In this document: positions 11,364 to 22,631 of the stretch, one piece after another
Layout: each line of letters opens with the position of its first letter
Numbering within the stretch: the first letter of the stretch is position 1
Source of the DNA: an uncultured bacterium
Lineage (GTDB): Bacteria; CAYJRR01
NCBI GenBank assembly: GCA_964372275.1
Contig: CAYJRR010000044.1
Coordinates: 1-33,545, forward strand
DNA length: 33,545 bases
Direction: 5' to 3'
Notes under the pieces: generated by a model
Seen by the model: only the letters and a program-made list of their open reading frames with translations
Told to the model about the DNA's origin: nothing
Databases searched by the model: none
Made by a program: the position numbers and the translations under genes

Positions 11364-12863
11364 CTACGAGGATACGCCTCGACAGAACTCCATCAAGGTT
11401 CGAACGCCGAAACCGGTCCCCCCTTTCGGTCCGATCGGGGGGGTCTTCTCGGCGAACGCCGGGCCGGCGATGTCGAGATGCACCCAGGAGGCGTCCCCGA
11501 CGAACTCCCGCAGGAAGAGCCCCGCGGTGATCGATCCGCCGTAGCGATCCCCCGTGATGTTCTTGATGTCGGCCACGTCCGAATCGATCTTCGATCGCAT
11601 GTCCTCGTCGAGCGGCAGAGGCCAGAACTTCTCGTCGGCGCGCCTCGCAGCGGCCAGCACCTCGTCGAGCAGACGTTGGTCGTTCCCCATCGCCCCCGCA
11701 TACCAGTCGCCGAGGCCCACCACCACCGCGCCGGTGAGCGTCGCCAGGTCGATGATCGCGTCCGGCCGGTACTTCGTCCTCGCGTAGTGCAACACGTCGG
11801 CGAGGACGAGGCGACCCTCGGCGTCGGTGTTCAGCACCTCGATCGTCTTTCCGCTCATCGAGCGGATGACGTCGCCGGGCTTCTGCGCTCGCGCCCCCGG
11901 CATGTTCTCGGTGGCGCCGATCAGGCCCACCACCTCCACGTCGGGCTTGAGCCGAGGAAGCGCACGGAACAGGCCGAGCACCGCCGCGGCGCCGGCCATG
12001 TCGCATTTCATCGTCATCATGCCGTCGGCGGTCTTGAGCGACAGGCCCCCGGAGTCGAAGGTCAGCCCCTTGCCGACGACGGCAATCTTCCGCCGCTTTC
12101 CGCCGCGCGGCGGCGTCGACGGCGCGTAGCGGAGCTCGATCAGCTGCGGCGGCTCGAGAGATCCGGCGGAGACGGCGAGGATCGCGCGCGCGCCGATGGC
12201 CTGGAGCGCCTCCCCGGCGTGGACCTCGACCTCGACCTCCTTGCCGGCGAGCGACTGGGCGACCCTCGCCAGCTCCGCCGGCGGCTGGTCTCCGGCGGGG
12301 TCGTTCACCAGGTCTCGCGTGAAGTTGGTCGCATCGCTCGCGATCCGCGCGAAGGCGAGCGAGGCGTCGATCTCCCGTGATCGCTTCACCGTGCCGACCA
12401 GGACGAGTCGTTTCACCTTCTCCGGCTTGTCTTCGGTCTTGTAGCGGAGGTAGCGGTAGAGACCGAGCAGTCCTCCTTCGGCGGCCGCGCGCGCCAGGAG
12501 CGCGTCGGGGACCGACGTCCCCGACGGCAGGACGATCGCGACCTCGGAGGAGTGGCCGTTCCGCGCCGACGCCAGCGCCTTGGCGGCGGCACGGCGAAAG
12601 ACTTCGGTGTCGAACTTCTCGGGAACCCCCAGCCCGTGGATCATGACCCGCGGGGACCCGAGCCCGGAAACGTCGACGATCAGCTGCTGGTCCTTCTTCC
12701 CGGTGAACTTCTCGCGGGCGATGCGCCGCGAGACCAGTCCGCGGGAGGCCCGATCGACGTCGGCCACCTGGCGCTCGAGGAGCTTCTTGTCCTGCAGCAC
12801 CGGGACCACCAGCAGGTCCGCCTTCTGCGACTTCGCCGCCCCCTGGACGTACTCGACCTTCAC
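11364..12863 (-). CDS. pepA: Leucyl aminopeptidase (M17)
   Basis: VGKGLTFDSGG, MKCDMAGAA, NTDAEGRL, DLATLTGA, WVHLDIAG. Confidence 0.95.
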   Translation of the reverse strand: MKVEYVQGAAKSQKADLLVVPVLQDKKLLERQVADVDRASRGLVSRRIAREKFTGKKDQQLIVDVSGLGSPRVMIHGLGVPEKFDTEVFRRAAAKALASARNGHSSEVAIVLPSGTSVPDALLARAAAEGGLLGLYRYLRYKTEDKPEKVKRLVLVGTVKRSREIDASLAFARIASDATNFTRDLVNDPAGDQPPAELARVAQSLAGKEVEVEVHAGEALQAIGARAILAVSAGSLEPPQLIELRYAPSTPPRGGKRRKIAVVGKGLTFDSGGLSLKTADGMMTMKCDMAGAAAVLGLFRALPRLKPDVEVVGLIGATENMPGARAQKPGDVIRSMSGKTIEVLNTDAEGRLVLADVLHYARTKYRPDAIIDLATLTGAVVVGLGDWYAGAMGNDQRLLDEVLAAARRADEKFWPLPLDEDMRSKIDSDVADIKNITGDRYGGSITAGLFLREFVGDASWVHLDIAGPAFAEKTPPIGPKGGTGFGVRTLMEFCRGVSS

Positions 12864-14902
12864 GCTCGGCCCCCTCCGATCCTCTCCACCAACACCTCCG
12901 ACAGGTCCTTCACCTCGATCGCCCGCTCCCCTTCCTTCGTCGTCTGGTTGACGGCGTCGCGGATCATCGTCATGCAGAACGGGCAGCCGACGGCGATCGT
13001 CGCGGGGTTCGCGTCCTTCAGGTCGGCGAGGCGATTCTCGTTCATGCGGATCCCGACATGCTCCTCCATGAACATCCGCCCGCCGCCGGCGCCGCAGCAG
13101 CGCCCCATCCGCCCGCTCTTCTCGACGTCGACGCGCAGGGCGCCGGCCGCATCGAGCACGGCGCGCGGCGATTCGTAGCGGTCGTTGTAGCGCCCCAGGT
13201 AGCAGGGGTCATGGAACACCGTGCGTTCGGGACCGCTTCCGTCGGCCGCCGCCGCGTTCGCGACGGCGGACCTTGCCGCCGCGGCCGGAATCTTGAGCCG
13301 GCCCGACGCGATCAGATCCTCCAGGAGCTCCGAGTGATGCACCACTTCGATCGTCTCCAGGCCGAAGTCGGGGTACTCGTTGGCGAGCGTGTTGAAGCAG
13401 TGCGGGCAGGCGGTGACGACCTTGCGGATCTTCCCCTGGTACTTCCGGAAGGTCGCGACGTTGGCCTGGGCCTGCGCCTGGAACAGGTACTCGTTCCCGA
13501 CCCGGCGCGCCGGATCGCCGGTGCAGGTCTCCTCCTTCCCGAGCATCGCGAATCGGACGCCCGCCTCCTTCATCAGCGCGACGATCGCGCGCGAGACCTT
13601 CTTGTTGCGGTCGTCGAACGACCCGGCGCAGCCGACCCAGAACAGGTAGTCGATCTCCTCCCCGGCGTCGGCGACCTGGGCCATGCTGCGGACTCCGAGC
13701 CCCTCGGCCCAGGCCGCGCGGTCCTCGGAGGAGAAGTTCCAGGGATTCCCGTTGCGCTCGATCCCGGTGAAGGCGGGCTGGACCTCGGGCGGGAAGGAGC
13801 CTTCCATCAGCACCAGCTCGCGCCGCATGTCGACGATGCGATCGACGTATTCGATGAAGACCGGACAGGTCTCCTCGCACGCGCGGCAGGTGGTGCAGGA
13901 CCACAGCGCCTCGGTGTCGATGATCGGCCCGGGGAGCTTCTCCTCGAGCTTCCCCGCCTTGATCGCGTTGCGCAGTCCGACCGAGATCTGCTTCGGCGAG
14001 AGCGGCTTTCCGCTGTTGAACGCCGGACAGACGTTGGAGCACCGCCCGCACTCGGTGCAGGTGTAGACGTCGAGCATCTGCTTCCAGGTCATGTCCAGGG
14101 CGGTGTCCATCCCGAACCTGACGTTCTCCCCCTCGACGTCGAGCTTGATCGGCTTGAGGCGCCCCTTCGCCGTCGTCCGCCGCAGGAAGATGTTCGGCAG
14201 CGACAGGATCACGTGGAAGTGCTTGCCGTGCGGCAGGTAGACCAGGAAGGCGAGCACCAGCGAGACGTGGATCCAGTAGCAGGCGACGCCGACGACGTGC
14301 GCGGCCGCGGCGCTGATCGCCGCCATTCCCATCGCGACGCCGGTCACCAGCGGCGGATGCGCCGGGAGCGCGCGTCCGCCCCACGCCGACACTTCGTTCC
14401 CGATGCGGAGCATCGCCGCGTCGAAGCCCAGATCGGTCAGCACCAGGCCGGTGATCCAGAAGAGGATCAGCGTCCCCTCCCGGGAGAGCGTCAGCCGCTG
14501 CGGCCGGGTGAAGAGCCGCCGCCAGAGGTTCCCGGCACAGCCGACCAGGATCAACGCGTTGATCGCATCCTTGAGCCACAGGTATCCGACGCCGATCGGC
14601 CCGTCGAAGAACGGGAGCTCGAAGCGGGTCGAATACCCCATCCCGATCATGGTGATCGTCCGCAGGCTCACCACCATGAAGCCGGCGAAGATGAAGATGT
14701 GCAGGAGACCCGGGATCGGGTCGTCGAGCATCCGCTTCTGGGCAAAGCCGTAGAGAAGGAGGTCCTTCAACCGCCGTGGCAGGTCGAGCGCGAAGTCGGG
14801 ATCGCCCTTCGCGCGCAGGAGCGGCTGGAGTCGATGACGCATGACCCAGGCGAAGCCGCCGAGGCTCAAGCCTAGCAGGAGCGTCATGAGGATCGGACCC
14901 AC
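12860..14902 (-). CDS. Membrane-bound Fe-S oxidoreductase (FadF / heterodisulfide-reductase-related, CCG domains)
   Basis: N-terminal TM region, CTECGRCSNVCP, CTTCRACEETCP, and CCG-domain motifs ACPHC, HDPCY, CCGAGG, GCPFC. Confidence 0.88.
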   Translation of the reverse strand: MGPILMTLLLGLSLGGFAWVMRHRLQPLLRAKGDPDFALDLPRRLKDLLLYGFAQKRMLDDPIPGLLHIFIFAGFMVVSLRTITMIGMGYSTRFELPFFDGPIGVGYLWLKDAINALILVGCAGNLWRRLFTRPQRLTLSREGTLILFWITGLVLTDLGFDAAMLRIGNEVSAWGGRALPAHPPLVTGVAMGMAAISAAAAHVVGVACYWIHVSLVLAFLVYLPHGKHFHVILSLPNIFLRRTTAKGRLKPIKLDVEGENVRFGMDTALDMTWKQMLDVYTCTECGRCSNVCPAFNSGKPLSPKQISVGLRNAIKAGKLEEKLPGPIIDTEALWSCTTCRACEETCPVFIEYVDRIVDMRRELVLMEGSFPPEVQPAFTGIERNGNPWNFSSEDRAAWAEGLGVRSMAQVADAGEEIDYLFWVGCAGSFDDRNKKVSRAIVALMKEAGVRFAMLGKEETCTGDPARRVGNEYLFQAQAQANVATFRKYQGKIRKVVTACPHCFNTLANEYPDFGLETIEVVHHSELLEDLIASGRLKIPAAAARSAVANAAAADGSGPERTVFHDPCYLGRYNDRYESPRAVLDAAGALRVDVEKSGRMGRCCGAGGGRMFMEEHVGIRMNENRLADLKDANPATIAVGCPFCMTMIRDAVNQTTKEGERAIEVKDLSEVLVERIGGGRA

Positions 14903-15035: not shown

Positions 15036-15671
15036 CTACCAGGTCGCCGACTCGTCGTCGTCGCTCTCGCCGCCGCCGGCCGACGCCCACGGATCGGCCG
15101 CCGGCGCGGGCGCGTCGCTCGGGGAGGCGCTGTCGCCGGACGGAACCGCCCAGGGATCGGCGGACGCCGGAGCCGGAGAAGCGAACAGGTCCTCCGCCGA
15201 CGAGCCGGACTCCGCCTCGCCGAAGCCGGTGGAGCTCGTGGTTTCGAACGCCCCCGACGAACCGAACGGATCGCCCGAGCCGCCGCCGCTCGTCGACTCG
15301 CCGGCGAATCCGGCGACGTCGAAGGCCGAGGCGGCCCCGATTCCGGAGTCGAGCGCCGGCGCGTTGGCGAAACCGTCGCCGGAGAGCGATTTGAGCTGCG
15401 TGGCGACGACCCACCCCTCGAGGGTGATCACGTCTTCGCCGCGCTCCCACTCGGTGCGGATCTTGAGCCACTGCCCGTCTTCGCTCTTCCCGAGCACGGC
15501 GACATCGCGGTTCGGACCGAGCTTGAGCTTCGATCGTGCCCCCTCGGTCGGGAGGGCGCGTAGCTCGACGGTACGGGATCGAACACGCGCCACCTCCGCG
15601 GCGTTCGAAACGGCGGCGAACGAGGCGACGACGGCCGAGAGGACGCAGATCGAGCGGGAGAGTGGGGTCAT
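15036..15671 (-). CDS. Secreted SH3b-like domain protein with acidic low-complexity tail
   Basis: Signal peptide, LRALPT..VAVLGKSEDGQWLKI..EGWV (SH3b-like), and a Ser/Gly/Asp-rich tail. Start is chosen at ATG 15671. Confidence 0.65.
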   Translation of the reverse strand: MTPLSRSICVLSAVVASFAAVSNAAEVARVRSRTVELRALPTEGARSKLKLGPNRDVAVLGKSEDGQWLKIRTEWERGEDVITLEGWVVATQLKSLSGDGFANAPALDSGIGAASAFDVAGFAGESTSGGGSGDPFGSSGAFETTSSTGFGEAESGSSAEDLFASPAPASADPWAVPSGDSASPSDAPAPAADPWASAGGGESDDDESATW

Positions 15672-15812
15672 GTCCCCCACTGGGAGCAAGGACTCGGCCA
15701 GCGACCGGCGTCGACTCAACGTGGCGAAATCCAAGGGACCTTGCCGCCGCGCCGGACCGGGATCGAGCGCTTTTGGCACCCCTTGGGACACCCCGTATCC
15801 ACCCCTCGAGGG

Positions 15813-17693
15813 TTATGGCTTCGAGACGATCTCGTCGACTCGTCTGCCGGCGACGGCGGTGGTGACCGCGCGGTCCATGCGGCGGCGGGTGAAGTCGGAG
15901 GCGACCGCTTCGAGGCGATCGATGGAGGCGAGGATGGCGCGGTGGTCCTCGCCGCGCGCGGCGGAAGCGACCTCCGCGATGGCGGCGTCGAGCGCGGCGC
16001 GTTCGTCCGCGGGGAGCAGATCGCCGTCCTTGGAGAGCGCCCCTTCGACGGCGCGCAGCACGCGGTCGGCCTCGGTTCGGGCCTCGATCAGGAGCCGCTG
16101 CGTGACGTCCGCCTCGGCGTGCTCGATCGATTCGGCGAGCATCCGCTCAATCTCCGACTCCGAAAGACCGTAGGTCGGCTTCACCTGCACGCCCGCTTCG
16201 ATCCCGGTGTGCACTTCGCGCGCGGAGACGCGCAGGATCCCGTCGGCGTCGACGACGAAGGTGACCTCCACCCGCGCCATGCCGGCCGGAAGCGGCGGGA
16301 TCCCGGACAGCCGGAATCGCGCCAGACTGCGGCAGTCGGCGACCATCTCCCGTTCCCCCTGCACCACGTGGAGGTCGATCGCCGTCTGGCCGTCGGCGAA
16401 GGTGGTGTAACCCTGGGTCGCCGAGGCCGGGATCGTCGAGTTGCGGAAGATGATCTTGTCGACGATCCCGCCCATCGTCTCCAGGCCGAGCGACAGCGGG
16501 ATGACGTCGAGCAGGAGCACGTCGGATCGCCCGCCGCGGTGGAGCAGGTCGGCCTGGATCGCCGCCCCCAGCGCCACCACCTTCTCGGGGTCGATGTCGC
16601 CGAGCGGCTCCCGTCCGAACAGCTCCGCGACGAAACGCCGGACGTACGGAGAGCGGGTGGAGCCGCCGACGAGGATCACGCCGGTGAGGTCGTCGGCCGG
16701 GATCCGGGCGTCGCGCAGCGCGTCGCGGCAGGGCGCGCCGGTTCGCTCGACGAGCGGGCGGACCACCCGCTCGAACTCCTCGCGCGACAGGTCACGGTGC
16801 CGACGCGAATCGTCGGCGGCGGAAACGGCGACCGTCACCCGCTCCCGCAACGACAGGTCGATCTTGGCCTGCGAGGCGGCATCGACCGCCGCCAACACCT
16901 GACGCGGCGAAAGCGAGGCGGGTTCGATCCCGGCTTCGCGAAGGAGGAACGACGCGACGGCGCGGTCGAGGTCGTCGCCGCCGAGGCGCGTGTCGCCGCC
17001 GGTCGACAGCACCTCGAACACCCCGTCCTTCAGGCGCAGAACGGAGACATCGAACGTGCCGCCCCCCAGGTCGTAGACGGCGAACACCCCTTCCGCCTTG
17101 CGGTCGAGCCCGTAGGCGAGCGCCGCGGCGGTCGGCTCGTTCAGAAGCCGCAGCACCTCGAGGCCGGCGAGCCGGCCGGCGTCCTTGGTCGCCTGGCGTT
17201 GCGCGTCGTCGAAGTAGGCGGGGACGGTGATCACCGCCCCCTCGATCTCCTCGCCGAGCTTCGTCCGGGCCCGGCTCTTCAGTTCTTTGAGGATCTCCGC
17301 CGAGACCTCGACGGGCGTCACCGCGCGAGATCCTCCGGCCACCAGAAAACGGACCATGCCCGTGCCTTCGCGCTCACCCGGGGGGCTCCCCCGGACCCCC
17401 TGCCCGCCCGCGTCGGGCGCGAAGCGGTAGGTGGAGAGCCCTTCGACGAGGTCCCCCTCCTTCAACCCCCGCCCCATCCAGCGCTTGGCGGAGGCGATGG
17501 TGTCCTGCGGATGCTCCGCCTGGCGTTCGCGCGCCTCCCAGCCGACCGAGACCGACCCGCCGGCATCGAACCGCACTACCGACGGGAGGAGCGCCCGGTC
17601 CCGCTCGTCGAGGATGACACGGGGGCTGTTCCCGTCGACGTAGCCGACGAGGCTCTTGGTGGTGCCGAGGTCGATGCCGATCGCGCGTCCCAT
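15813..17693 (-). CDS. hscA: Fe-S assembly Hsp70 chaperone HscA
   Basis: [52 protein letters not shown]. Located after hscB in an isc operon. Confidence 0.93.
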
Positions 17694-17697
17694 CGTC

Positions 17698-18318
17698 CTA
17701 TCCGCCGGCGGGCGACCCTTCGGCCTCGGCGGCGACCTGCTCGAAGTAGCGCATCTCGTCGAGGAGCGCGACCACTTCCTTCAAGGGACCCACGTCGGAC
17801 GGGTTCTCCTCCCAGCGCGCAAACGCCCGATCGGCCGCCGCCAGCCGCCGCTCGCGCTCGGTCTTCGCCCCCGCGCCGATCCGCCCCAGGGCCGCGCGGT
17901 CCCCGGCCGCCTTGGCCTCCGCCAGTTCTTCGCGCGTCTCCATCATCGCCATCAGGAAGGCGGGCTCCATCGCCGCGCGTTCTCGGTCGGCGCCGCCGGC
18001 CTTCAACCCGTGGAGCGAGAGCAGATACTCGGCGCGCCGCACCGGATCGCGCAGCGTGCGCACCGCGTCGTTGAGCAGGGTGGTGTGCTGCAGCGAGAGC
18101 GCCCGTTCCCGCGCGTCGGCCCGTGCGAAACGGTCGGGGTGCAGCCGCCGCGACCGATCGCGCAGGATCCCGGCGAGCGTCTCCGCGTCGAGATGCCAGC
18201 GCCGCGGCAGCCCGAGGAGTTCGAAGTAGTCCCCCGTCCGCGGCGGCTGGAGTTTCCCGCACGCAGGACAGGAGTCTCCCGCGTCCGCCGCGGACTCATT
18301 GCAGTTCCAGCAGCTCAC
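17698..18318 (-). CDS. hscB: Fe-S assembly co-chaperone HscB with N-terminal CxxC...CxxC
   Basis: [20 protein letters not shown]-domain motif, [12 protein letters not shown]. Confidence 0.92.
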
Positions 18319-18321
18319 GTT

Positions 18322-18657
18322 CTAGACGGAGAAGGAGGTCCCGCAGCCGCAGGACTTCTTGACGTTGGGGTTCTCGAGCTGGAAGCCACGCTCCTGCAGC
18401 GTGTTCTTCCAGGCGATCGTCATCCCGTCGAGGAAGACGAACGACTTCGGATCGCAGACCACCCGCGCCCCGTCCGACTCGAACAGCTTGTCGTTCGGCA
18501 GCGGTTTGGTGGCGAAGTCCATCACGTAGGAGAGCCCCGAGCAGCCGCCCCCCTTCACCCCCACGCGCAACGCCCCCTCGACCGCGCCACGCTCGGCGAC
18601 GATGCGCTTGATCTCGACAGCCGCCTGCGGGGTGATCTGGATCGACATCGCGGCCAA
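18322..18657 (-). CDS. iscA: A-type Fe-S carrier IscA (HesB family)
   Basis: LRVGVKGGGCSGLSY and NPNVKKSCGCGTSF. Start is 18657 (TTG) or 18648 (ATG). Confidence 0.92.
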   Translation of the reverse strand: MAAMSIQITPQAAVEIKRIVAERGAVEGALRVGVKGGGCSGLSYVMDFATKPLPNDKLFESDGARVVCDPKSFVFLDGMTIAWKNTLQERGFQLENPNVKKSCGCGTSFSV

Positions 18658-18660
18658 CCG

Positions 18661-19071
18661 TTAGGCCCCCGCTCCGGCCTTGCCGACGGAGCCGTCGCGC
18701 TTCGACTTGTAGTCGGCGATCGCCGCCTTGATCGCGTCCTCGGCCAGTACCGAGCAGTGGATCTTCACCGGCGGCAGCGCCAGCTCCTGGGCGATGTCCA
18801 TGTTCTTGATCTTCATCGCCTCGTCGATCGTCTTCCCCTTCACCCACTCCGTGACCAGCGACGAGGAGGCGATCGCCGAGCCGCATCCGAAGGTCTTGAA
18901 CTTGGCGTCCTGGATGACGCCGTCGTCGGCGACCTTCAGTTGCAGCTGCATCACGTCGCCGCACGCCGGCGCGCCGACGAGCCCCGTTCCCACGTTCGGG
19001 TCACTCTTGTCGAGCTTCCCGACGTTCCGGGGGTTCTCGTAGTGGTCGATCACTTTTTCGCTGTAGGCCAT
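18661..19071 (-). CDS. iscU: Fe-S scaffold IscU
   Basis: MAYSEKVIDHYENPRNVG, APACGD, FGCGSAIASSS, LPPVKIHC. Confidence 0.96.
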   Translation of the reverse strand: MAYSEKVIDHYENPRNVGKLDKSDPNVGTGLVGAPACGDVMQLQLKVADDGVIQDAKFKTFGCGSAIASSSLVTEWVKGKTIDEAMKIKNMDIAQELALPPVKIHCSVLAEDAIKAAIADYKSKRDGSVGKAGAGA

Positions 19072-19097
19072 CGCTCGTTCCGAGTGTCGTCTTTCCG

Positions 19098-20627
19098 TTA
19101 ATGGGCCGTCCACTGGACCGACTTCAGGTCGATCCCGTCCTTCACCATGTCGTAGAGGGGGGACATCTCGCGGAGCCGCCGGATCTGCTTCACCACCAGG
19201 TCGGCGACGAAGTCGACCTCCTCCTCGGTGTTGAACTTCCCCAGGCCGAAGCGGATCGAGCTGTGGGCGTGCTCCTCCAGCCCCATCGCCCGCAACACGT
19301 AGCTGGGCTCGAGGGTGGCCGAGGTGCAGGCCGAGCCGCTGGAGCAGGCGATGTCCTTGATCGCCATCAGGATCCCCTCCCCCTCCACGTACTCGAAGGC
19401 GACGTTCAGGTTGCCGGGGAGCCGGTGTTCGAGCGATCCGTTGAGCGAGACGTGGTCGAGCTCGGCGAACAGCCGTTTTCGAAGACGCTCGCGCAGCGCG
19501 AGGACCTTGGCGCCGTCCGCGGCCATCTCTTCCTTCGCCCATTTCGCCGCGCTTCCGAGCCCGACGATCCCGGGGACGTTGAGCGTCCCGGAGCGCATCC
19601 CACGCTCGTGGCCGCCGCCGTCGATCTGCGCCGCGATCCGCACCCGCGGCTTGCGCCGGACATAGAGCGCGCCGACCCCCTTCGGACCGTAGAACTTGTG
19701 CGCCGAGAGGGTGAGCAGGTCGATCTTCATCGCCTCGACGTCGACCGGGATCTTGCCGACCGACTGGGTGGCGTCGGTGTGGAACAGCACCTTCGCCTCG
19801 CGGCAGACGGCGCCGATCGCCGCCACGTCGTGGACGGTGCCCACCTCGTTGTTGGCGTGCATGATCGTGACCAGGATCGTGTCGCGCGCCGTCCCCTTCC
19901 GGATCGCGGCGCGAACCTCCTCCGGGCTCACCCGCCCGTCCCGGCCGACCGGCAACACCGTGACGTCGAACCCCTCGTGCGCCAGCCGCTTGGTGGTGTC
20001 GAGCGTCGCCTTGTGCTCGGTGACGCAGGTGACGATGTGCCGCCCCTTCCCTTTGCACGCGTCGAGCGCGAGGCGCGCCGCCTCCGCCGGATCGCCGCGG
20101 TGGACGACGATTCCGCGCTCCGCCGCGAAGGCGGCCAGCTCGTTCCACGCCTTCGTGTCCCCCGGCGTCGACGCCAGGACCAGCACGATCGTGTCGTCTT
20201 CGAGGGTGTCGGCCCGGATCGCGGCGCGCACCGCCGGCGCCGTCGTCTCCGGCGGCAGGACGGTCGACCGGAACCCCTTGGCCGCGAGCTCCGCCGCCAC
20301 CGTCGCGAACCCGGCCGGATCGGCCCCGACCACCAGGACGTGGCGCCCCTTGGTGCGGTAGTACTGCGCCACCCCTTTGATTGCGAGGTTGTTCCCTTCG
20401 GTCGCGCCGGAGGTCCAGACGATCTCCTTGGGATTGGCGCCGATCAGCGCCGCCACCCGGTCGCGCGCCTCCTCCACCGCCGCCTCGGCCTTCCAACCGT
20501 AGGCGTGATTGCGGCTCGCGGCGTTGCCGAACTCCTGCCGGAAATAGGGGAGCATCTCCTCCAGCACGCGCGGATCGATCGGCGTCGTCGCGTGGTAGTC
20601 CATGTAGATCGGAAGTCGTAGCGCCAT
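19098..20627 (-). CDS. iscS: Cysteine desulfurase IscS, 509 aa, with a 101-aa internal insertion
   Basis: [27 protein letters not shown] (PLP Lys), SSGSACTS (catalytic Cys), LREMSPLY. About 100 aa longer than a typical IscS. Confidence 0.93.
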
Positions 20628-20638
20628 CGTGAACCCTT

Positions 20639-21124
20639 CTACCCCTTGAAGAACCCGGCCACGAGCGAGGGGCTCGAGCCGACGCGGTCCGGACCTCCGA
20701 CGTCGCACTGCGAGCAGGCGCTCACCGCGTGCGTATGCTCGTCGCACACCGTCCCGCAGGTTTCGAGGTACTCGAGACTCGCCTCCAGTTCGCGGGTGAG
20801 CGCGCGCAGGCGGTCGATCTGCGCGCGCGTCTCCGCCAGCTTCTCCCGGTAGAGGCCGCGCACGTATCCCATCGACTGCGGACCCGAGGCCCCCCCCTCC
20901 CAGTCGTGACGGAACCCCTGGATCTGGTGGAGGCTGAAACCGAGGTCGTTCAGGTGGGCGATCCACTTCACGCGCACCACGCTCTCGGCCCCGTAGAGGC
21001 GGAACCCCCCCTTCGATCGCTCGACCGGGTGGAGAAGTCCCATCTCTTCGTAGAGATGGAGCGCGCGCACGCTCTTTCCCGTCAGCCGGGAAAGCTCGCC
21101 GATCTTGAGTCGTCGCCCGTGCAT
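20639..21124 (-). CDS. MerR-family transcriptional regulator with C-terminal Cys/His cluster
   Basis: [43 protein letters not shown], coiled coil, then [18 protein letters not shown]. Confidence 0.9.
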
Positions 21125-21137
21125 ATCGCCCCGAAAT

Positions 21138-21165
21138 CAAACCCTAACGTATACGTAAGGGTTTG
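21138..21165. promoter_or_regulatory. 28-bp palindrome, probable MerR-type operator
   Basis: CAAACCCTAACGTATACGTAAGGGTTTG is self-complementary at 13 of 14 pairs. It is AT-rich and lies 13 nt upstream of the merR start codon. Confidence 0.75.
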
Positions 21166-21254
21166 TTATGGCCTCGAATCTAGGGGATCGAAGCACCGAG
21201 GTCAATCGGAAAGATACCCGAATTAACCGGGACTTAGGATTATACTATGGGAAG

Positions 21255-22631
21255 GTGCCGCGGACGCGAACCGCCGGAACCGTGCGGTGGCTGCTCCTGC
21301 CCGTGCTGGCAGGCTGCGCGTCGGAGTCACTCGTCCGACTCGAGGTGCCCAAGGGGGCGATCGTTCTGTCGGGGGCCGCCGTCTACCTCGGCGAGGGACG
21401 GACGCTGGACGACGCGCTGCTGGTGATCGACGGCGACCGGATCGTCGGACTCTCGCCGCGGCCCGGCGGGCGCATCGCCCTCCCCCGGGACGCGACGGTG
21501 ATCGACCTCGACGGGCGCACCGTCGTTCCCGGGCTGATCGAGCTCCACGCGCATCTGGCCGCCGACGGCTGTTTCGCCGAACCGATGACCGAGCCGCGAT
21601 TGCGCCGGCAACTGCGCGCCTACCTCCACCACGGCGTCACCACGGTCGTCGACCTCGGCTCGTCGGTCTGGCTGTCGGAGGAACGACGTCGCGCGCGCGA
21701 GGAGGAATGGGACTCTCCGGAGATCCTCCTCGCCGGCCCGATGATCACCGCACCTGGCGGCCATCCCGCCGCGGCCGAAGGCCGGCACGGCGGCGCCGCA
21801 CGACGCGTCTCCGACTCCGAGGAGGCCCGCCTCGCAGTCGGCGAGATCGCCGATCGCGGGGGGGACCTGGTGAAGGCGGTGCTCGAGGCCGGCGGCTTCG
21901 GCGGTCTTCCGGTCTCGCCGTCACTGGGGAGCGCGGAGCTGCAGGCGATCGCCGACGAGGCCCACGCACGCGGATTGCGGCTGTTCGTCCACGTCTCGTC
22001 GGCGGCGGAGGCGATGCTCGCGATCGACGCCGGCGCCGACGTGCTGGCCCACCTGCCGATCCGGGAACCGATGTCGGAGGAGCTGGCGGCCTCCTTGCGC
22101 GACGCAAAGATCCCGGTGATCAGCACGCTCTCGGAGGTGGAGGGGGTCTTCCGCCTGCTCGACGAGCCGGCATGGATCGACCGGATGGAGGCGAAAGGAG
22201 TCGTCGACGCCGACGTCGCCGCCGCCTGCCGCGGACCGGAGGTCGTCTCCCGCGCGGCGCAGACCCCGTTCACCGACTACGCGCGCGCGCAGTTCGAGGT
22301 GGCGCGGAGGAACGTCGCCACGCTCGAGGCGGCCGGGGCGGAGGTCGTCGCCGGCACCGACGCCGGCAGCCTCTACGTCTTCCACGGCGCCGGGGTGCAC
22401 CGGGAGTTGGAGCTGCTGGTGGAGTCGGGCTTGAGCCCCGACGAGGCGCTCGACGCGGCGACGCTGCATGCGGCGGCCGCGCTGGGACGAGAGGACCTGG
22501 GGGCGATCCGCCCGGGGCGGCGCGCCGACCTGCTGGTGGTCGAAGGGAACGTCAACGAATCGCTCGCGCCGCTGTCACGGATCGAGATCGTGGTTCGCGC
22601 CGGACGGCTCTACCGCCGCGACGACCTGTAG
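21255..22631 (+). CDS. Amidohydrolase family protein, probable lipoprotein
   Basis: Lipobox LAGC, PGLIELHAH (HxH), VKAVL, FVHV, LAH, AGTDAG, GAIRPGRRADL. Start is uncertain (21255 or 21282). Confidence 0.85.
   Translation: MPRTRTAGTVRWLLLPVLAGCASESLVRLEVPKGAIVLSGAAVYLGEGRTLDDALLVIDGDRIVGLSPRPGGRIALPRDATVIDLDGRTVVPGLIELHAHLAADGCFAEPMTEPRLRRQLRAYLHHGVTTVVDLGSSVWLSEERRRAREEEWDSPEILLAGPMITAPGGHPAAAEGRHGGAARRVSDSEEARLAVGEIADRGGDLVKAVLEAGGFGGLPVSPSLGSAELQAIADEAHARGLRLFVHVSSAAEAMLAIDAGADVLAHLPIREPMSEELAASLRDAKIPVISTLSEVEGVFRLLDEPAWIDRMEAKGVVDADVAAACRGPEVVSRAAQTPFTDYARAQFEVARRNVATLEAAGAEVVAGTDAGSLYVFHGAGVHRELELLVESGLSPDEALDAATLHAAAALGREDLGAIRPGRRADLLVVEGNVNESLAPLSRIEIVVRAGRLYRRDDL

Follow-up and report, generated by a model that had tools for sequence, protein, structure and literature searches.

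A MerR-family protein at the head of the isc operon is probably a feedback switch for iron-sulfur supply

merR, which opens the isc operon merR-iscSUA-hscBA, encodes a MerR-family protein, and hundreds of other bacteria carry the same protein and DNA site at the head of Fe-S operons; the protein is thus probably a so far undescribed switch that feeds back on iron-sulfur supply. The operon lies in a window of 33,545 nucleotides, the whole stretch of DNA that was analysed. The reading favoured here, which we consider moderately likely, is that the product of this gene is a dimeric factor dedicated to the local regulation of Fe-S biogenesis and that its cluster-loaded form represses its own operon through a palindrome. 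The family to which it belongs is real and widespread and apparently undescribed, and a literature search found no description of a MerR-type regulator of Fe-S biogenesis.

What is understood of the control of Fe-S supply, an essential function, comes mainly from Rrf2 proteins (IscR, RisR and RirA) and SufR. If the favoured reading is true, a new scaffold would join the short list of Fe-S homeostasis sensors, the same regulatory logic would have arisen on yet another fold, and the control of isc or suf would be explained in a large part of Polyangia and Candidatus Eisenbacteria.

Operon architecture

Six co-oriented genes on the minus strand follow one another in the order merR-iscS-iscU-iscA-hscB-hscA. 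The regulator gene merR (20639-21124) encodes 161 residues matching the Pfam families MerR_1, MerR and MerR-DNA-bind. Behind it lie iscS, the cysteine desulfurase gene (19098-20627; 509 residues; NF010611, 659 bits against a cut-off of 548); iscU, for the scaffold (18661-19071; TIGR01999, 231 bits against 192); iscA, for the A-type carrier (18322-18657; TIGR00049, 115.5 bits; PF01521); hscB, for the co-chaperone (17698-18318; TIGR00714, 63.4 bits; PF07743); and hscA, for the Hsp70-type chaperone (15813-17693; TIGR01991, 814 bits against 709), which is the final recognisable isc gene. The iscS product contains an internal duplication of ~100 residues, and its NF010611 match is split into two stretches. 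The hscB sequence carries an N-terminal CxxC...CxxC extension.

The gene coordinates give successive gaps of 11, 26, 3, 3 and 4 nt, which bears out the co-oriented isc gene order with 3-26 nt gaps described in the earlier note. Here, iscS begins 11 nt past the merR stop codon, and no terminator-like site was found between these two genes in the window. Across the loci compared, the gap from merR to the next gene has a median of ~17 nt across 85 isc loci and ~38 nt across 22 suf loci, with several overlaps.

In its own genome (94.6% complete), merR stands at the head of the one complete Fe-S system that was found. Neither SufB nor an Rrf2/IscR protein above cut-off was found in that genome, the sole Rrf2 signal being a 24.6-bit C-terminal fragment at a low-GC contig end.

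The regulator and its four-cysteine module

The profile matches and the structural model both place the window regulator in the MerR family of transcription factors. A winged helix-turn-helix (HTH) of the MerR type is present (PF13411, 52.5 bits against a cut-off of 21.6; PF00376, 45.6 against 28.2), as is the coiled-coil dimerisation region (PF09278, 33.1 against 25.4). The predicted architecture comprises this winged HTH, a long dimerisation helix (modelled at residues 81-126), a C-terminal Cys4 module and a conserved tail. In the AlphaFold2 model (mean pLDDT 84.9), the helix has a pLDDT of 83-97 through residue 120, with 86 for residues 111-120, and the top Foldseek matches are all MerR-family chains. 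The regulator fits none of the named subfamilies: it misses every NCBIfam MerR equivalog cut-off, and its three best scores are 52.7-54.7 bits against cut-offs of 143-151. Individual values among the CueR, ZntR, CadR-PbrR and MerR equivalogs are 54.7 against 151.45 bits, 52.8 against 147.4, 51.1 against 167.95 and 42.6 against 150.85. The Pfam search gave no match to the Rrf2 domain (PF02082) in this protein.

The proposed sensor site is formed by C123, C127, C137 and C140, whose codons span 20705-20758 on the minus strand and match exactly the C-terminal CX3CX9CX2C motif reported earlier. The four residues form two pairs, C123-GTV-C127 and C137-SQ-C140, with H130 and H132 between them. Conservation of the cysteines, which the earlier note had set as a check, is complete: they are invariant in all 118 aligned homologues (alignment A2), in the 23 sequences of a second alignment (A1) and in 115 of 115 locus-derived proteins, and 119 of the 120 top homologue matches carry the motif. 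Spacing varies within the family: the 120 nearest homologues show CX2-3 C X8-9 C X2 C, and others reach X10-13. The earlier note had pointed to the two histidines between the pairs; they lack conservation in both alignments, and the 118 aligned homologues led us to reject His130 and His132 as ligands.

The first cysteine of the module lies where the dimerisation helix ends, and the 118-sequence alignment contains no invariant or near-invariant cysteine in that helix before C123. The module itself is modelled at low confidence (pLDDT 63-68), and no solved structure covering it was found among the PDB sequence matches or by Foldseek. An ESM Atlas look-up with residues 112-161 returned only sub-threshold leads, the best at 0.89 and a "SoxR family" fragment cluster at 0.86, to which we give no weight. 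Beyond the module lies the conserved C-terminal tail P152-x-L-V-A-G157-F (20642-20671, minus strand), in which P152 and G157 are invariant and L154 and V155 are conserved at >=90% across the 118 sequences.

Promoter and operator

A scan of 15600-21400 identified a sole sigma-70-type promoter for the operon, consisting of a -35 hexamer TTGACC (21200-21205, minus strand) and, across a 17-bp spacer, a -10 hexamer TAGATT (21177-21182, minus strand). TTGACC-17-TAGATT scores 9 of 12, and shuffled sequences give a mean of 0.2 such promoters. A promoter of the form TTGAC(N16-18)TAnnnn holds the same place ahead of the palindrome in many homologous loci.

Directly downstream of this promoter lies a putative palindromic operator, AACCCTTACGTA|TACGTTAGGGTT (21140-21163, unstranded; 22-nt core at 21141-21162), inside the region 21138-21165 that the earlier note had singled out for DNA binding. 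On the minus strand, from 21162 to 21141, the 22-nt palindrome reads ACCCTTACGTATACGTTAGGGT, and symmetry extends to 11 of 12 positions over 24 nt. The operator type is ACCCTTACG-N4-CGTAAGGGT, of 22 bp. Its start falls 14 nt past the -10 hexamer, over the expected transcript start. Where a promoter could be recognised in a locus, most spacers measure 16-18 bp, with the palindrome beginning anywhere from -5 to +20 nt relative to the -10 end.

The site recurs at the corresponding place in other genomes. The 8-mer ACCCTTAC occurs in 53 of 81 upstream regions; at a threshold of >=15 matches in 20, a site is found in 65 of the 81 and is lacking in the other 16. In all, 84 operator sites fall within 22,436 upstream positions, whereas the remaining 1,080,661 positions of those loci hold 2. 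Loci of the suf type also carry the palindrome (17 of 20). Within its own 4.64-Mb genome the operator has one strong position weight matrix (PWM) match, at 42.1 bits, the next reaching 13.6, and beyond that genome, sites with <=2 mismatches were confined to merR promoters, in three genomes. A palindrome with three mismatches in genome G045 (locus L134) was set aside as a chance occurrence, as it lies between convergent gene ends and three-mismatch sites occur at the rate of the control pattern. The genomes scanned for the palindrome gave no sign of a wider MerR regulon.

Distribution and gene linkage

The search returned 805 homologues of the window protein. Genome loci were collected for the best 80 of 526 relatives, ranked by similarity. 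At 78 of these 80, merR is followed directly by iscS and then by iscU-iscA-hscB-hscA as far as the contig reaches. The remaining two, together with 19 of 20 further loci of the same phylum (titles Candidatus Eisenbacteria), instead have the order merR-sufA-sufC-sufB-sufD-sufS-sufU. Across the 115 loci examined, merR directly heads an isc operon in 86 and a suf operon in 22 (mostly Candidatus Eisenbacteria), and seven are divergent paralogues. Linkage of homologues to isc or suf, which the earlier note had asked to be surveyed, is present at 108 of 115 loci, and since both gene sets are involved, the regulator tracks a function, Fe-S assembly, and not one gene set. In the tree, one clade (SH-aLRT 98) unites the suf-linked proteins and lies nested among the isc-linked ones.

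The seven divergent paralogues keep the four-cysteine module and have no isc or suf gene nearby, which indicates that the module is not specific to Fe-S operons. Both paralogue loci whose neighbours were scanned (L095 and L097) precede an ECF sigma factor. A metagenome scan with the window protein alone gave one short locus, in which sufC follows merR (L108). The family occurs in 47 of 201 sampled genomes of the Polyangia phylum and in 70 of 121 Candidatus Eisenbacteria genomes. In five other carriers, no isc or suf gene was found within about 1.5 kb of the Rrf2 genes. Gene order, cysteine motif and palindrome recur together in >100 loci of other genomes, which is far beyond chance.

Discussion

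Taken together, sequence comparison establishes the family membership of the regulator, the invariance of its cysteines, its linkage to isc or suf and the conservation of an operator and its position. All the computational checks named in the earlier note turned out in its favour: the invariant cysteines, the linkage, the short gaps, the missing terminator and the conserved operator lend good comparative support to its proposal of an autoregulator that acts as the functional counterpart of IscR. Linkage to, and autoregulation with, an isc or suf operon mark the class of Fe-S-sensing regulators (IscR, RisR and SufR); the window protein shares the linkage and probably the autoregulation.

The proposed mechanism would begin with binding of a MerR dimer to the 22-24-bp palindrome downstream of the -10 hexamer of the single sigma-70 promoter of merR-iscSUA-hscBA, where it would repress its own operon. 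The four-cysteine module, positioned at the end of the dimerisation helix in the place of the metal loop of MerR-family metal sensors, would ligate an Fe-S cluster made by the very machinery under MerR control. The repressor would be the cluster-loaded protein. When clusters are scarce or destroyed, through high demand, iron limitation or oxidants, apo MerR would release the DNA and the operon would be induced. This logic would be that of IscR, RisR and SufR on a different protein fold, and it is by analogy that the holo form is taken to be the DNA-binding repressor.

We infer that the Cys4 module binds an Fe-S cluster, with a Zn/thiol site as the main rival. RsrA and Hsp33 are known Zn(II) thiol-based redox switches, and with the same regulator and operator the four cysteines could likewise hold Zn(II): the reduced Zn form would repress, oxidants would release Zn and induce isc or suf, and the protein would sense oxidative stress and not Fe-S status. 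This reading is rather unlikely. A pair of CxxC knuckles separated by 8-13 residues is the most common signature of a Zn site, CxxC...CxxC is also the classical structural-Zn motif, and the ECF sigma factors beside both scanned paralogues are a typical stress-response context. The stress induction of suf operons in model bacteria, described in PMC9973013, also fits. A pure redox switch, however, would give no feedback on iron or cluster supply, and merR heads both the only complete Fe-S system found in its own genome and a housekeeping-type isc operon in 86 loci. Moreover, the known regulators in the same position are Fe-S proteins (PMC9973013), and these characterised examples serve as a precedent for the window MerR. 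More doubtful still, and in our estimate quite improbable, is a mononuclear metal at the Cys4 site, either Fe2+ in a rubredoxin-like setting or another thiophilic metal, in a CueR/ZntR/CadR-like metal sensor whose target is, by chance, Fe-S assembly, as in iron-dependent repression. CueR/ZntR/CadR-type sensors bind metal at the end of the dimerisation helix, where the first cysteine of the module lies, and CadR, CueR, ZntR and MerR lead the NCBIfam and PDB sequence matches. The equivalog scores nevertheless fall far under their cut-offs, and the extra cysteine that such sensors add from the dimerisation helix has no counterpart here. No metal transporter is linked, and the neighbours at isc- and suf-type loci are always Fe-S assembly genes.

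Membership in the MerR family raises a further alternative, which concerns the direction of control: the protein could be a classical activator that occupies the promoter in both states and, upon a signal, untwists an over-long spacer to turn isc on, in the way SoxR controls soxS. A few loci (L014, L018, L033 and L038) do have another copy of the palindrome that overlaps the -35/-10 spacer. Classical geometry requires the palindrome inside a 19-20 bp spacer. The window promoter has the optimal spacer of 17 bp with the operator beyond the -10 hexamer, an arrangement that argues for simple repression instead of activation of the MerR/SoxR type; classical geometry was rejected for this promoter, and most homologous loci are alike. 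We consider the activator reading very improbable. Some members of the MerR family are plain repressors, so the unmet geometry lowers the case for a protein that works like MerR or SoxR, not the case for family membership.

Comparison with characterised regulators places the favoured holo-repressor in context. SoxR shares the MerR fold and four cysteines from one subunit directly behind the dimerisation helix (Foldseek to 2zhg, E = 7.5e-6), yet the window protein reaches 33.3 bits with TIGR01950, where the cut-off is 116.9, and its profile alignment to 2zhg ends before the cysteine region. The SoxR cluster motif, CX2CXCX5C, is absent, its place being taken by CX3CX9CX2C. SoxR acts as an activator at a 19-bp spacer, and its signal is redox-cycling drugs, not the supply of Fe-S. 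Over the HTH and coiled coil, CueR, ZntR, CadR and MerR are the top matches in both sequence and structure, and their metal loop occupies the same place as the Cys4 module; the window protein differs in its Cys4 pattern, in its linkage to Fe-S assembly in place of efflux, and in a promoter geometry that is a repressor's.

IscR is a [2Fe-2S] protein of the Rrf2 family, encoded by the first isc gene in E. coli and other Proteobacteria, that regulates its own expression through a Cys-ligated cluster in negative feedback on Fe-S supply (PMC9973013). The window MerR is likewise the first gene of an isc operon but has another fold and family with no Rrf2 domain, another operator, and four cysteines where IscR has three Cys plus His. 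RisR, of an Rrf2 subgroup, is found in Myxococcus xanthus: as holoprotein it represses both isc and suf, footprinting places it over the -10 and the transcription start of the isc promoter, and its motif is TkGAC-N7-GTCCw (PMC9973013). That footprint position is close to the position of the MerR operator, and the organism belongs to the same phylum as most carriers of this MerR. RisR differs in being an Rrf2 protein, in a motif unlike ACCCTTACG-N4-CGTAAGGGT, and in controlling two operons, whereas the window MerR appears to control only its own. SufR is a Cys-bearing repressor heading or neighbouring the suf operon in cyanobacteria and mycobacteria (PMC6034842); its position resembles that in Eisenbacteria-type loci, but it is of another DNA-binding family and unrelated in sequence.

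A broader joint reading carries, in our estimate, about an even chance. The protein would be a second MerR-family Fe-S sensor beside SoxR, independently evolved, a holo-repressor that measures cluster supply. Regulator and operator would have travelled together, as a cassette, between ISC and SUF, two systems that are not homologous, in at least two phyla and in the deep lineage of the window. The paralogues may couple the same module to ECF sigma factors, and the P-x-L-V-A-G tail could be where a cluster carrier makes contact to load or read the sensor.

The repressor-operator pair is compact and unique in its own genome, and it could serve as a reporter of Fe-S status. Cultured carriers include Labilithrix luteola DSM 27648 (L067) and relatives of Sorangium, Sandaracinus and Nannocystis, which makes the MerR regulator directly testable.

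The regulator and its cysteines

Comparison across genomes shows the MerR-family protein of the window to be a putative regulator dedicated to operons for Fe-S assembly, and its predicted autoregulatory operator to be conserved. The gene (20639-21124, minus strand, ATG at 21124) encodes 161 residues with three MerR-family Pfam domains. It is followed on the same strand by iscS (19098-20627), iscU (18661-19071), iscA (18322-18657), hscB (17698-18318) and hscA (15813-17693), assigned by NCBIfam as IscS, IscU, A-type carrier, HscB and HscA, respectively. The gaps between these six co-oriented genes are, from merR to hscA, 11, 26, 3, 3 and 4 nt, and no terminator-like site was found between merR and iscS. 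The protein falls below every NCBIfam equivalog, with CadR, CueR, ZntR, MerR and SoxR scoring 33-55 bits versus cut-offs of 117-168.

The Cys-rich C-terminus described in the earlier note is present as C123-x3-C127-x9-C137-x2-C140 (codons at 20705-20758). A search of 5.8 billion proteins returned 805 homologues (E <= 0.001); among the 120 listed, 119 carry a four-Cys motif, and the exception is a 108-aa fragment that stops before it. All four Cys are invariant in alignments of 23 and 118 sequences, as are P152 and G157 of the C-terminal P-x-L-V-A-G tail. H130 and H132, the two His between the Cys pairs, are conserved in neither alignment. When 1.84 billion cluster representatives were searched with a profile, 197 reached E <= 1e-30. 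The strict four-Cys pattern is matched by 116 of the best 150 of these; the remaining 34 are seemingly mostly fragments, frameshifted ends or wider-spaced forms. The closest relatives (67-77% identity) lie on metagenome contigs, and all 40 genome "relatives" of the window's own genome share only its taxonomic domain, with no same-phylum genome among those compared. The source of the window seems to be a sparsely sampled lineage.

Linkage to Fe-S assembly genes

One genome per species was scanned, which gave 526 relatives, and gene context was read in the 80 most similar loci. In 78 of these 80, merR is directly followed by iscS, although these are the nearest relatives, and related genomes inherit gene context together. 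The complete set through hscA is found in 67 of the 78, the other 11 being interrupted by a contig end. These iscS-linked loci are titled Myxococcota, mostly Polyangia; named carriers include Labilithrix luteola DSM 27648 and metagenome-assembled genomes named Sorangium, Sandaracinus and Nannocystis. The other two loci, from Candidatus Eisenbacteria, instead read merR-sufA-sufC-sufB-sufD-sufS-sufU-Rieske-SufT.

That merR switches between two assembly systems that are not homologous is more telling than the shared context of close kin. The family is found in 70 of 121 Candidatus Eisenbacteria genomes sampled (E <= 1e-30) and in 47 of 201 sampled genomes of the Labilithrix phylum. Twenty Eisenbacteria loci, picked solely for sufficient flank, comprise 19 with merR-suf and one with merR-iscSUA-hscBA. 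In total, context was examined for 115 family genes, all of whose products retain a four-Cys motif: 86 head isc, 22 head suf, and neither lies near the other seven, which are either second copies that have diverged or more distant family members. Projected from the merR stop, the following gene lies at a median distance of ~17 nt in 85 isc loci and of 38 nt in 22 suf loci; in several cases the two overlap. In a quick maximum-likelihood tree with SH-aLRT support only, the suf-linked proteins form a single clade (SH-aLRT 98) nested among isc-linked ones; the window protein, on a long branch, is placed close to this clade with weak support.

Two loci carry a second, divergent regulator copy (L095, 7314-8495, minus strand; L097, 7989-9112, plus strand) at 36-43% identity. 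Each keeps a four-Cys module, and the gene that comes after it encodes an ECF sigma factor, with no Fe-S genes there. Possibly, the same sensor is coupled here to a stress sigma factor.

No Rrf2 domain in the window's own genome, which is 94.6% complete, passes the Pfam cut-off; other carriers have Rrf2 genes elsewhere in the genome. The sole weak Rrf2 match in the window's genome is a C-terminal fragment on contig C188, beside the first ~40 codons of sufC. This contig end (bases 1-375; a ~300-nt stretch) has 51% G+C versus 69% for the rest of the contig, and seems to be either a chimeric assembly or the leftover of a suf locus of foreign origin. Elsewhere the assembly gives no Rrf2 or suf signal. 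SufB was not found in the assembly, so ISC is the sole complete Fe-S assembly system seen in it.

Promoter, operator and regulon

A sigma-70-type promoter, TTGACC-17-TAGATT (21205-21177, minus strand), is the sole such match in 15600-21400. The 22-nt palindrome ACCCTTACGTATACGTTAGGGT (21162-21141, minus strand) begins 14 nt past the -10, and therefore overlaps the expected transcript start; a G-rich stretch and then the merR ATG lie downstream of it. At classical MerR and SoxR promoters, the operator sits within a 19-20-bp spacer. Here, in contrast, it lies downstream of the -10 and the spacer is the optimal 17 bp, a geometry that is, as read from the DNA, of the repressor type.

This arrangement recurs. 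Of 81 regions upstream of merR, 53 contain the 8-mer ACCCTTAC and 65 at least one palindrome-like 22-mer (>=15 of 20 matches), with two or three in 18. There are 84 such sites among 22,436 upstream positions, compared with 2 among 1,080,661 other positions of the same loci; although the weight matrix was seeded with the window's palindrome, the inside-versus-outside count is a fair control. The site is also present in 17 of the 20 Eisenbacteria-type loci. Where homologous loci have a recognisable TTGAC-type promoter, spacers of 16-18 bp predominate, and the palindrome starts -5 to +20 nt relative to the end of the -10. A few loci carry an additional copy, either overlapping the spacer or flanking the -35. 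Many operators are directly followed by a half-site-like repeat, TAGGGTT or TTGGGTT (L001, L005, L006, L010, L071, L077, L078 and others). These repeats and the multiple palindromes may reflect cooperative binding of more than one dimer.

The 4.64-Mb assembly of the window's genome contains one strong matrix site, the window palindrome (42.1 bits; next 13.6). In three other carriers, matches with at most two mismatches occur at the merR promoter only, and three-mismatch matches are as frequent as those of a control pattern. In the genomes scanned, the regulon therefore appears confined to the regulator's own operon.

The proposed sensor module

AlphaFold2, run with the 118-sequence alignment, predicts a MerR fold (mean pLDDT 84.9) with a dimerisation helix spanning residues 81-126 and the first Cys at the helix end; the Cys module reaches a pLDDT of only 63-68. 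Foldseek and a PDB-sequence profile search return MerR-family proteins (a B. cereus regulator, CadR, SoxR, CueR and MerR), and none of these alignments covers the Cys module. The modelled sensor site thus occupies the metal-loop position of MerR-type sensors, but is predicted to be a distinct module.

What the four Cys bind could be read in two ways. The main rival reading is a Zn-thiolate site serving as a redox switch, which is favoured by the CxxC...CxxC pattern and by the paralogues ahead of ECF sigma factors in the two loci scanned. The spacing is compatible with a cluster, since the CX2CX11CX2C motif of the sensor kinase NreB binds a [4Fe-4S] cluster. Because the Cys are invariant, the tie to two Fe-S assembly systems is strict and there is precedent, we infer that the four Cys would hold an Fe-S cluster and that the holo protein would be the repressing form. 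The IscR-like autoregulator of the earlier note accordingly divides: isc/suf linkage and a conserved operator hold up by comparison, and cluster binding stays at the level of this proposal. According to one report, the precedent regulators IscR, SufR and RisR are Fe-S proteins, holo RisR represses both the isc and the suf operon, and RisR protects the -10 and transcription start of the isc promoter (PMC9973013).

RisR of Myxococcus xanthus is the closest published case and comes from the same phylum as most carriers, but is an Rrf2 protein, not a MerR; that paper contains neither the word MerR nor mention of Polyangia, Sorangium or Nannocystis (PMC9973013). No description of a MerR-family regulator of isc or suf was found in full-text literature whose coverage excludes most subscription journals. 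The regulatory logic and the superfamily are already known; the combination and the sensor module appear to be new.

Other features of the operon

The window IscS has 509 residues rather than about 404. The extra ~100 residues (20070-20384, minus strand) are a degenerate tandem copy of the adjoining downstream segment (30% identity over 83 aa, E = 4e-7). Seven relatives share this long form (499-516 aa, 72-76% identity), and the other IscS listed have 403-425 aa; among the fetched loci, IscS is longer than usual only in L020 and L034 (about 454 aa). HscB begins MSCWNC...SCPAC (18232-18318, minus strand), a CxxC...CxxC extension ahead of the J domain that is reminiscent of the HSC20 Zn finger in eukaryotes. 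Of the 74 HscB genes in the fetched loci, 13 encode a comparable motif.

The E. coli isc operon has fdx and iscX after hscA; both are absent from this position in the window. A co-oriented 251-aa ORF (15036-15791, minus strand) begins 21 nt past the hscA stop and is a possible further member of the operon. An N-terminal stretch of its product is hydrophobic and the tail is rich in Ser, Gly and Asp; a Pfam search gave no match. An Fe-S client protein is encoded nearby, further downstream of the isc operon: a 680-aa HdrD/GlpC-like membrane protein (12860-14902, minus strand) that combines two CCG domains with a 4Fe-4S dicluster domain.
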